Source of the DNA: Candidatus Thorarchaeota archaeon
GTDB taxonomy: Archaea > Asgardarchaeota > Thorarchaeia > Thorarchaeales > Thorarchaeaceae
Reading direction: 5' to 3'
DNA length: 32,000 bases
NCBI GenBank assembly: GCA_003345555.1
Contig: PRDJ01000041.1
Coordinates: 30,001 to 62,000, forward strand
Shown here in pieces: positions 30,046 to 32,000 of the stretch. The position numbers and the translations under genes are program-made. Positions within the stretch are counted from its first letter, which is position 1, and each line of letters starts with the position of its first letter. Under the pieces are notes generated by a model. It did no database searches. It worked only from the letters and a program-made list of their open reading frames with translations, and was not told the origin of the DNA.

Positions 30046-31110
30046 ATGCCCGCCTTTGCTGGAGTCACTATCGTAAGGGACACTGTGTTAGTCCTCGATT
30101 CGGCTGTTGTGTTGTACACACTGCTATTCGGACTTACGCTCGTATATGAATGGCTCAGGAGCCCACTGCGGAAGCTCACAGATGTAAGATTGGCATGGTC
30201 CGTCTTCATGTTCGGCATGGCCTCTAACTCGTTCTGCTTCATCATGTCGGATTTCTACTTCACTGCCGAGGCCGATTGGATATTGTGGGTCAAAGCAGGA
30301 TATGTCTCCATGATGCTTGCGCTTGTCGGCTTCTCGGTTGCGCTTGAGAGAATACTGCCCTATCGTACACACCACGTATTCTCTTCCGCCGTGACTGTCA
30401 TTGCTGTGGCTTCTCTTCTGGCTCCGAGGGAGACGTTGACCACTCTTGCGTTTGCAGCTTGTTTGGTCGCCTTTGGCATTCTGGTCTTGTTCTTCAGATT
30501 CTTTGTGAGGAACACGACTGGTGTCGTCCGAAGCAGTATGAGAGTCATCTTGGTCGGCTTTCTTGTAGGGTTCGTGGGCTATATTGGTCGTAGCGACTTC
30601 GTATATGCTGGCCTTGGTCCGGAGGTCTATATCCTAGGTGGATTCCTCTTGGCTGGAGGACTTCTGATTCTGGGCACTGCCGTGCTTGGGTCACCCGCTC
30701 TCGACGAATTGGACTGGACTGACCAGATGCTTGAACTCTATTTGATACACACAAGCGGAATTCTGTTGTATCACCACAAGTTCGTGCCAGCAGTCAATAT
30801 GGATGAGAGTCTAACAGCCGCAGGCATTACAGGAGTCCAGGAGCTGTTCAAAGAGATCACCCAAAGCAAGACCGGCCTGAACAATCTATCCGTGGGAGAC
30901 TTCAACATTCTGTTCGCCCATCAAGTCGATTTCACATCGGTCCTCATAGCGAAGCAACCCTACCGAGTGCTCTTGGAAAAGGTGAAGGACTTCTCCGACA
31001 AGTTCCAGCTTGTCTTTGGAAAGGCAGTGCAAGAATTCTCTGGAAACACGAGTCAATTCGATGCTGCGGAACCGCTAGTTAAAGCCGTGTTCAGTCCGGG
31101 CTCCAAGTAA
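30046..31110 (+). CDS. 7TM membrane protein with C-terminal longin-like domain, paralog 1
   Basis: GGGAGG RBS; seven hydrophobic helices, then LYLIHTSGILLYHHKF...GITGVQELFKEIT...VLIAK...KFQLVF, a beta-beta-alpha-beta-beta-beta-alpha-alpha longin-like pattern. Confidence 0.85.
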   Translation: MPAFAGVTIVRDTVLVLDSAVVLYTLLFGLTLVYEWLRSPLRKLTDVRLAWSVFMFGMASNSFCFIMSDFYFTAEADWILWVKAGYVSMMLALVGFSVALERILPYRTHHVFSSAVTVIAVASLLAPRETLTTLAFAACLVAFGILVLFFRFFVRNTTGVVRSSMRVILVGFLVGFVGYIGRSDFVYAGLGPEVYILGGFLLAGGLLILGTAVLGSPALDELDWTDQMLELYLIHTSGILLYHHKFVPAVNMDESLTAAGITGVQELFKEITQSKTGLNNLSVGDFNILFAHQVDFTSVLIAKQPYRVLLEKVKDFSDKFQLVFGKAVQEFSGNTSQFDAAEPLVKAVFSPGSK

Positions 31111-31173
31111 TCCCGAGAACAACCCACCCTCGCGAGCAGGCGCACCCACATCAGGTCTACTGCGTTCCCGTTG

Positions 31174-31200
31174 AGACATTCGTACGCGGAATGCTTTAGT
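31174..31200 (+). promoter_or_regulatory. Conserved 27-bp upstream motif, copy 2
   Basis: AGACATTCGTACGCGGAATGCTTTAGT (26/27 identical to copy 1), ending 72 nt before ATG 31272. Confidence 0.6.
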
Positions 31201-31271
31201 TGGTTGCAGCCTGGCCTCAACACCGTGGGTCGCTCTAGACCCCGTTGGGTTTATGCTTCGGGAGGCCGACC

Positions 31272-32000
31272 ATGCCGCCGTTTGTTGAGGTCACTCTTGT
31301 AAGAGACATTGTACTGATTCTCGACTCAGCTGTTGTGCTGTACACACTGCTGTTCGGGTTGGCATTTGTGTACCAATGGCTGAGGAGCCCTTTAAGGAAG
31401 CTGACAGATGTGAGGTTGGCATGGTCAGTCTTCATGTTCGGGATGGCATCAAACTCGTTCTGCTTTGTTATGTCGGATTTCTACTTCACTGAGCCGACTG
31501 CGTGGGTGCTATGGGTCAAGGCGGGCAATGTCTCATTGACGCTGGCACTTGTGGGCTTTTCTCTTGCTCTGGAGAGGATCTTGCCATATCACACGCATCA
31601 CGCCTTCTCCATGACAGGGACCCTCGTTGCTGTGGCTTCTGCACTTGCCCCGAGGGAGTTGCTGAATCCTATTGCACTTGCAGCCATCCTGGCGGCATTT
31701 GGAATTCTTGTCCTCTTTTTCAGATTCTTTGTGAGGAACACGACTGGCGTTGTTAGAAGCAGTATGAGAATCATCTCGGTTGCGTTTGTTGTTGGGTTCG
31801 TGGGTTTTCTCGGTCGCAGCGACATCGTCTATTACGGCTTGGGTCCGGGGGTCTACATTCTAGGTAGTCTGTTTCTTGTCGGAGCGCTCCTGATTCTGGG
31901 GACCACCCTATTCGGATCACCGGCCCTTGATGAACTGGACTGGACCGATCAGATGCTCGAACTGTATGTTATTCATACCAGTGGGATACTACTGTTTCAC
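31272..32000 (+). CDS. 7TM-longin-like protein, paralog 2 (3' end runs off the window)
   Basis: Not in the ORF track. GGAGG at 31261 and 243 open codons (MPPFVEVTLVRDIVLILDSAVVLY...LELYVIHTSGILLFH). About 78% identical to paralog 1 by manual alignment. Confidence 0.88.
   Translation, partial: MPPFVEVTLVRDIVLILDSAVVLYTLLFGLAFVYQWLRSPLRKLTDVRLAWSVFMFGMASNSFCFVMSDFYFTEPTAWVLWVKAGNVSLTLALVGFSLALERILPYHTHHAFSMTGTLVAVASALAPRELLNPIALAAILAAFGILVLFFRFFVRNTTGVVRSSMRIISVAFVVGFVGFLGRSDIVYYGLGPGVYILGSLFLVGALLILGTTLFGSPALDELDWTDQMLELYVIHTSGILLFH

Follow-up and report, generated by a model that had tools for sequence, protein, structure and literature searches.

What role can be assigned to two adjacent Thorarchaeota genes, each of which joins a seven-helix membrane domain to a tail resembling the longin fold, which eukaryotes use for docking small GTPases and vesicle coats? 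The genes lie at the right end of a 32,000-nucleotide stretch of contig 41 (hereafter the window) of a 2.28 Mb genome of Thorarchaeota type, where they were recognized as two open reading frames (ORFs) on the same strand. Gene A (window 30046-31110, plus strand) encodes 354 residues, and gene B (plus strand, 353 residues) runs from an ATG at 31272 past the window edge at 32000 to contig position 62330. An earlier interpretation made from the letters alone (the sequence-only reading) had described the pair as seven-transmembrane (7TM) receptor-like paralogs with a longin-like domain, belonging to a diversifying family of sensors that signal directly to small GTPases. In the analysis described here, the architecture was examined by structure prediction and family comparison, and the same tail was found behind other kinds of membrane protein in Asgard archaea.

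The genome contains no 7TM-longin copies other than genes A and B. In a BLASTP alignment of the in-window part, the two proteins were identical at 190 of 243 positions (78%) without gaps, as had been counted by hand in the sequence-only reading, and the full-length proteins are likewise 78% identical. The in-window part of gene B corresponds to residues 1-243 and covers the seven transmembrane (TM) helices, the linker, and the first longin strands.

Membrane domain and longin tail

Residues 1-215 of gene A (window 30046-30690, plus strand) form the membrane domain. Seven hydrophobic segments were identified by hydropathy, and seven long helices (residues 9-38, 47-71, 75-103, 111-125, 128-156, 159-181, and 192-215) were present in an AlphaFold2 model of gene A built from 41 family members, with a mean predicted local distance difference test score (pLDDT) of 82.5 and a predicted template-modelling score of 0.74. 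In this model the helices are followed by a short linker helix and then by a domain with the element order beta-beta-alpha-beta-beta-beta-alpha-alpha. The N-terminus is predicted to be outside and the C-terminal domain inside by the positive-inside rule: the predicted inner loops contained on average 9.0 Lys and Arg residues vs 2.8 in the outer loops, with inside exceeding outside in 41 of 41 members, and the corresponding values in distant members were 10.5 and 1.7 (inside exceeding outside in 114 of 115). Hydropathy, model, and charge counts thus agree with the seven helices and the N-out/C-in topology that had been proposed from the letters.

In an exhaustive structural search with the whole model, residues 5-221 had the adhesion G-protein-coupled receptor (GPCR) ADGRL3 as their closest fold match (Z 14.8, root-mean-square deviation 3.8 Å over 200 residues), followed by other GPCR classes (Z 10-13), alkaline ceramidase 3 (ACER3; Z 11.8), and, at Z about 11, microbial rhodopsins, scores to be read with the search tool's caution that helical bundles attain Z 13-14 by common arrangement alone. 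By sequence, the 7TM part belonged to no family described in Pfam, NCBIfam, or the PDB sequence-profile searches, and Pfam and NCBIfam likewise yielded no usable family for the whole proteins or for the tail; the PDB searches gave only chance-level best matches for both domains (Sm D2, E 0.12; CD28 TM, E 0.23). Pfam 7tm_1, 7tm_2, 7tm_3, and similar models did not match either gene or the 41 members at E<=1. The term 'GPCR-like', which had been applied to the pair, therefore holds for topology and the general shape of a 7TM bundle only, and no GPCR sequence signature accompanies it. The 7TMR-DISM_7TM profile matched 3 of the 41 members without significance (best E 0.069).

Language-model look-alikes of both halves, scored at about 0.8, were used as leads only. 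One of them, kinship with HisKA_7TM (score 0.82), coincided with a comparison suggested in the sequence-only reading and was rejected, as HisKA_7TM was undetectable in 31 Asgard genomes including the source genome, while controls matched. Microbial rhodopsins were rejected as well: TM7 carries no Lys in 41 of 41 members, in line with the earlier remark that the retinal Lys motif is missing. The conserved polar positions of the membrane domain are N61, R182-S-D184 in outer loop 3, and D69, which lies at the outside end of TM2 and is kept in 80% of distant members; at the inner end of TM3, E101 (86% of distant members) and P105 are conserved. Conserved charges on the outer face are D69, R182, and D184.

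TM7 is joined to the tail by a juxtamembrane linker (gene A residues 216-227, window 30691-30726, plus strand) with the motif P-x-x-x-E-x-x-W. This linker is the most conserved segment of the protein, with a mean pairwise identity of 0.77 among the 41 members, all of them Thorarchaeota. Its residues are also kept in the 115 distant members, W224 in 98%, E221 in 86%, and P217 in 80%, and W224 is the best-conserved residue of the entire 7TM-form protein.

The cytoplasmic longin-fold domain follows (residues 228-354 and the stop codon, window 30727-31110, plus strand). The element order of the tail was assigned with DSSP in two AlphaFold2 models, with strands at 228-235, 240-245, 280-283, 286-292, and 296-302 and helices at 254-272, 307-329, and 336-349. 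When the whole model was searched with VIA, residues 223-352 aligned with the Fuzzy-type chain 7q3d_C (Z 13.2, 2.8 Å, 122 residues), and further longin matches were VAMP7 (Z 12.9), Sec22b (Z 12.6), Bet5 (3cue_A, Z 12.4), the Mon1/Ccz1 chains (Z 11.2), and AP sigma and mu-N (Z about 11-12). The tail was also modelled alone (pLDDT 78.9) and compared using Foldseek, in which the first 27 rows were all of longin fold (E 5e-5 to 1.5e-3, template-modelling score 0.47-0.67), including AP sigma, COPI zeta and delta, VAMP7, Sec22b, sedlin, and Mon1-Ccz1. The longin-like character ascribed to this domain in the sequence-only reading is upheld by element order and by both structural comparisons.

None of the longin-type Pfam models (Longin, Sybindin, Sedlin_N, Fuz_longin_1, Clat_adaptor_s) scored above its cut-off, and none matched gene A. 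Among the 41 members only sub-threshold hits were obtained, Fuz_longin_1 in three (best E 0.016) and Sybindin in one (E 0.025); both of these are longins of the guanine nucleotide exchange factor (GEF) type. As modelled, the tail belongs to the longins by structure, not by sequence family. AP sigma, COPI zeta, and SNARE longins were its best Foldseek rows and GEF-type longins scored about equally; the nearest longin class is indistinguishable because these structural scores are tied.

A roadblock/LC7 identity (MglB, LAMTOR) was considered for the tail and rejected. Roadblock/LC7 domains have the order alpha-beta-beta-alpha-beta-beta-beta, with an N-terminal helix and without the extra C-terminal helix, and the element order found here is that of longins. 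Roadblock chains aligned in VIA only up to residues 326-330, leaving out the last helix, and Robl_LC7 matched neither gene A nor any of the 41 members, although the model finds 12 other genes in the genome.

Distribution of the tail among membrane proteins

A word-indexed search returned 78 relatives of the pair, all unnamed or annotated as hypothetical and, where an organism was named, all from Thorarchaeota. When 1.84 billion cluster representatives were searched exhaustively with a profile, 1316 matched at E<=1e-3, and 532 did so at E<=1e-10. Most of the matching representatives are 350-370 residues long and align over their full length. In a sample of Asgard genomes, 161 of 201 contained a match (79 of the 85 high-quality genomes), and a single genome held as many as 10; at least six taxonomic families were represented among the full-length matches. 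Structure clusters with the 7TM-longin architecture were 93-100% archaeal. One of the 7TM-longin relatives, P0189 (507 residues), extends about 150 residues past the longin domain, and this extension has no Pfam match.

Many matches in the Asgard sample span only the last TM helices and the tail, and lie within longer ORFs. Two further architectures were recognized among them. Proteins of 530-570 residues showed nine to ten hydropathy peaks and matched the major facilitator superfamily (MFS) model MFS_1 of Pfam (E up to 2.6e-14 in the examples fetched), and their C-terminal ends matched the same longin profile at E 1e-24 to 1e-28. In proteins of about 790-880 residues, a hydrophobic segment at the N-terminus precedes a large ectodomain, after which come a single TM helix and the longin tail (E 1e-17 to 1e-24); one ectodomain carries LVIVD repeats with TSP3 and another CARDB with TSP3. 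The Trp before strand 1 was kept in all MFS-longin and single-pass-longin forms examined. Since the same profile and the same Trp occur on 7TM, MFS, and single-pass proteins, the longin tail was taken to be a juxtamembrane cassette common to varied membrane parts. Its distribution looks like what a module for output or docking would be expected to show.

Individual loci of these architectures were recorded. In another Asgard genome, two adjacent MFS-type genes of 554 and 570 residues (locus L034, 1664-3325 and 3472-5181) both end in the longin cassette. Single-pass longin proteins are encoded at L038 (850-3498, minus strand), L036 (3377-4999, minus strand), L035 (1510-3873, plus strand), and L037 (2622-5000, minus strand); the ectodomains of this set contain LVIVD and TSP3, contain CARDB and TSP3, or have no Pfam match, and some single-pass proteins carry an extra 60-80 residues behind the cassette.

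Within the source genome, the profile of the C-terminal domain detected one further, weak relative, on contig 55 (L044, 607-1803, minus strand). It is a soluble protein of 398 residues of which the N-terminal 100 or so match the longin profile (E 2.2e-4), and it has no Pfam match. It is possibly a soluble longin partner or an NPRL2-like protein.

Duplication, constraint, and genomic context

Synonymous divergence (dS) between genes A and B was saturated at 1.39, and the ratio of non-synonymous to synonymous divergence (dN/dS) was 0.10 overall, so that the duplication is old and both copies have been maintained. In a maximum-likelihood tree, copy B grouped with a protein of another metagenome (support 100/100), with a longer branch on the B lineage, and copy A branched beside them; the duplication therefore predates at least one species split. 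A close relative carries a single copy at the syntenic locus. A separate tandem pair was found in two other Thorarchaeota genera, and tandem duplication has recurred independently in at least three lineages. In another Asgard family, locus L039 holds three tandem 7TM-longin genes on the minus strand (368-371 residues from the first Met), two of them recent copies and the third very divergent.

The two copies differ mainly in outer loop 1, TM4, TM5, and TM7 and have a common cytoplasmic face. Loop 1, loop 5, and the linker behind TM7 were aligned as identical, as had been noted before. Amino-acid changes were counted at 1 of 45 positions in the cytoplasmic loops and linker vs 10 of 32 in the outer loops and N-terminus (Fisher p = 4.5e-4). 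Since the cytoplasmic loops and linker differ by 26 synonymous changes against one non-synonymous change, their identity is attributed to selection, and gene conversion was rejected as its cause. Positive selection on the outer face was rejected in turn, as dN/dS is 0.33 in the outer loops (0.13 in the TM helices); the outer loops are under relaxed constraint and not under diversifying selection. The description of the family as diversifying consequently does not stand, with dN/dS below 1 throughout.

The accompanying formula 'variable outside, conserved inside' applies to the loops of the two copies but not to the family as a whole. When whole TM halves of the pair were compared, the contrast was weak (32 of 108 vs 19 of 119 changes, p = 0.017), and in the 41 Thorarchaeota members the inner halves (0.53) and outer halves (0.49) did not differ significantly (p = 0.21). 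In the 115 distant members, few parts are less conserved than cytoplasmic loops 1 and 3, and the most conserved longin-side parts across the family are the linker, strand 1, and helix alpha1. Conservation of the inside is a property of close relatives, and among these it would fit a lineage-specific partner.

Signals for expression were sought upstream of both genes. A GGGAGG sequence resembling a Shine-Dalgarno motif was read 6 nucleotides before the ATG of gene A (window 30034-30039, plus strand) and with the same spacing before gene B (31260-31265, plus strand), and it recurs at identical spacing before the single-copy ortholog in a related genome (locus L033). Because of this spacing and the family-wide N-terminus M-P-x-F, the start of gene B was placed at ATG 31272 and not at TTG 31245. 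Farther upstream, a non-coding block of 27 nucleotides is identical at 26 of 27 positions between gene A (29945-29971, plus strand, about -101 to -75 from the ATG) and gene B (31172-31198, plus strand, about -100 to -74) despite the saturated synonymous sites. It contains the palindrome CGTACG, behind which lies an A/T-rich stretch of TATA-like character. The core of the block occurs twice in the whole genome, upstream of A and B only; the block is also present upstream of the single-copy ortholog at L033, and its A/T-rich part aligns with A/T-rich stretches in more distant orthologs. The block is a candidate regulator site plus promoter, and each copy seems to have its own, similar promoter.

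In one wetland metatranscriptome, two short contigs of low depth (2.7-5.2) covered window positions 30505-30672, where the match to gene A is exact, and 31233-31441, where the contig begins 39 nucleotides upstream of the gene B ATG and agrees with the first part of that gene but for a single mismatch and a single gap; carry-over of DNA is possible in these contigs, which show neither strand nor level.

Upstream of the pair lie genes for a divergently oriented radical-SAM activase, GNAT, MFS, Memo, HisRS, MgtC, and thermosome proteins, and downstream an 88-residue ORF and an EamA gene. Around the syntenic ortholog the same neighbours recur, and at three non-syntenic Thorarchaeota loci the surroundings consist of three further, unrelated gene sets. 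The nearest GTPase gene on the contig is about 17 kb downstream, and at least 16 Ras-type GTPase and 12 roadblock matches occur elsewhere in the source genome. Two ORFs near the pair have no Pfam match, one of 194 residues upstream (window 27520-28104, minus strand) and the 88-residue one just downstream (L002, 2699-2965, plus strand); both are kept at the same places in the syntenic locus L033. Elsewhere in the window, four genes at 9375-13349 (plus strand) encode a 4Fe-4S protein, an FAD/NAD-binding protein, an Oxidored_q6 small subunit, and a NiFe hydrogenase large subunit, and are laid out like a cytoplasmic group-3 (sulfhydrogenase-like) hydrogenase. The 885-residue protein encoded at 13454-16111 (plus strand) contains Eco57I-type and N6 DNA methylase domains and is probably a fused restriction-modification enzyme.

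Possible function and comparison with known systems

The function we favour, at a probability of roughly 0.45, is that of a membrane-tethered longin platform, probably a dimer, that docks a partner, most plausibly a small GTPase, and is modulated by the membrane part; the identity of the partner, dimerization, and dependence on a signal are what we infer beyond the architecture, topology, fold, distribution, and selection reported above. The N-out/C-in seven-helix protein would present its longin tail through the nearly invariant P-x-x-x-E-x-x-W linker as a platform that is probably dimeric like other longins. In complex prediction, two copies of the longin domain scored 0.49, the same as one unrelated control, so that this score speaks neither for nor against a dimer. 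At the membrane, the platform would recruit a cytosolic partner or regulate one, most plausibly one of the many small GTPases of the organism, and the 7TM part would set the place and time of docking, for instance through occupancy by a ligand or substrate. The two copies derive from the old tandem duplication, each kept under purifying selection and with its own promoter-like element. An extension of this proposal, a phylum-wide Asgard receptor system in which 7TM, MFS, and single-pass inputs with one longin output directly engage small GTPases, is more doubtful, though we still regard it as conceivable.

Several observations weigh against the favoured platform. The best structural matches of the isolated tail are AP sigma, COPI zeta, and SNARE longins, and the longins of coats and SNAREs are not GTPase regulators. 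No adjacent GTPase, roadblock, or recurrent partner gene was found at this locus, at its syntenic ortholog, or at the three non-syntenic loci. Across the wider family, cytoplasmic loops 1 and 3 are not conserved, which speaks against a coupling surface common to all 7TM parts. A ligand-binding feature was not identified in the 7TM part, and it could be a transporter. On gene order, GTPase genes of a cultured Asgard archaeon generally lie outside operons with roadblock or longin genes (PMC10933270), and according to published work GTPases and their regulators cannot be paired in this way.

Other functions were weighed as well. If the seven helices did nothing but keep a longin dimer membrane-bound, in the manner of LAMTOR1 with Ragulator or SR-beta with SR-alpha, the protein would be a constitutive anchor or scaffold that nucleates a GTPase, roadblock, or coat-like complex without sensing. 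Conservation of the cassette and its juxtamembrane Trp whatever the membrane part, the failure to identify a ligand site, and a C-terminal domain more conserved than the 7TM part family-wide (0.26 vs 0.20) all speak for such an anchor, which we nevertheless consider unlikely: seven helices exceed the needs of an anchor, the polar residues in or near the bundle (N61, D69, E101, R182-S-D184) are strongly conserved, and MFS and large-ectodomain proteins are typical input modules. A 7TM transporter or channel whose longin tail serves regulation, oligomerization, or sorting, in the way that SNARE and coat longins recognize partners or cargo, would account for the leading Foldseek matches (AP sigma, COPI zeta, VAMP7, Sec22b), for the same tail on true MFS transporters, and for the lack of a genomic link to GTPases at the examined loci. 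We hold it to be rather improbable, given that sequence searches with the 7TM part matched no transporter family, that single-pass proteins with large ectodomains and the same tail cannot be transporters, and that to our knowledge vesicle coats have not been demonstrated in Asgard archaea.

A membrane hydrolase of CREST type (alkaline ceramidase, PAQR, TMEM8/DUF3522) with an accessory longin was suggested by a weak Pfam DUF3522 match (E 0.025-0.15, 12-15 bits against a cut-off of 29.3) and by ACER3 among the fold matches. It was rejected as highly improbable for want of conserved His residues: the His/Asp/Ser metal site is missing, a single His column reaches 50% or more in the 7TM part of the 41 members, and none is conserved in the 115 distant members. 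GPCR bundles also outscore ACER3.

In Asgard archaea, small GTPases and longin and roadblock domains rank with the most expanded 'eukaryotic signature' proteins. For the membrane wiring of these GTPases, the large unannotated longin-membrane family offers concrete candidates for the missing link, and the soluble tails of about 140 residues are expressible and could be screened against the approximately 16 GTPases of a genome. If the link to GTPases is true, coupling of membrane to GTPase would be older than eukaryotes. A phylum-wide system, if real, would be a prokaryotic forerunner of receptor-to-GTPase signalling, with a logic like that of GPCR and G protein or of SLC38A9-Ragulator-Rag, and a possible source of the membrane-bound longin platforms in eukaryotic trafficking. 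If the tails bind other partners, they would still constitute a new juxtamembrane module of archaeal surface proteins.

Among known longin systems, the GEF-type platforms of TRAPP (Bet5/Trs23, Sybindin) and of Mon1-Ccz1 and Fuzzy-Inturned (Fuz_longin_1) are like the tail in fold and element order. They are soluble subunits of heteromeric complexes, whereas the Asgard tail is fused behind a polytopic membrane protein and has only sub-threshold Pfam hints of kinship with them, with no model at cut-off. The coat and SNARE longins (AP sigma, mu-N, COPI zeta and delta, Sec22b, VAMP7) gave the best Foldseek matches of the isolated tail (E 5e-5 to 8e-4, template-modelling score 0.55-0.67), and SNARE longins are likewise tethered to a membrane. 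In SNAREs, however, the longin domain is N-terminal and a single TM helix lies at the C-terminal end, whereas the Asgard proteins have the reversed order and seven helices, and they have neither a SNARE motif nor known coat partners.

On the membrane side, Anantharaman and Aravind reportedly described prokaryotic 7TM receptors with cytoplasmic output domains in 2003 (7TMR-DISM, 7TMR-HD, HisKA_7TM). The logic is alike, in that one polypeptide carries a 7TM module at the N-terminus and a cytoplasmic signalling domain behind it, with an output common to different inputs, but the Asgard 7TM part has no significant profile match to these families. We know of no longin among the outputs of prokaryotic 7TM receptors. 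The lysosomal SLC38A9-Ragulator-Rag system (Ragulator, PMC5696360) rests on a similar idea, in which a transporter-like sensor with several membrane passes is coupled to a platform for small GTPases, and the MFS-longin relatives bring this parallel closer. It differs in using separate proteins and a roadblock-type platform, while the Asgard form is one polypeptide with a longin-type domain and a hypothetical GTPase link.

From the same phylum come the published Asgard longin fusions, which share the habit of joining longins to signalling partners: longin-GTPase and longin-GTPase-roadblock fusions (PMC10933270) and NPRL2-like longins fused to two-component domains (10.1101/2020.10.19.343400). 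These fusions, with GTPases, TRAPPC3, or two-component domains, are soluble (PMC10933270; 10.1101/2020.10.19.343400), unlike the membrane fusions described here. A 2026 preprint names '7TM proteins' without detail among Asgard families reported earlier (10.64898/2026.10.28.762692). In a literature search on 7TM or transmembrane proteins, longins, and Asgard archaea, whose scope lay outside the asCOG tables of Liu et al., no description of a 7TM-longin or MFS-longin fusion was found. The finding belongs with two known kinds of system: longin platforms, and membrane receptors to which an output domain is fused.

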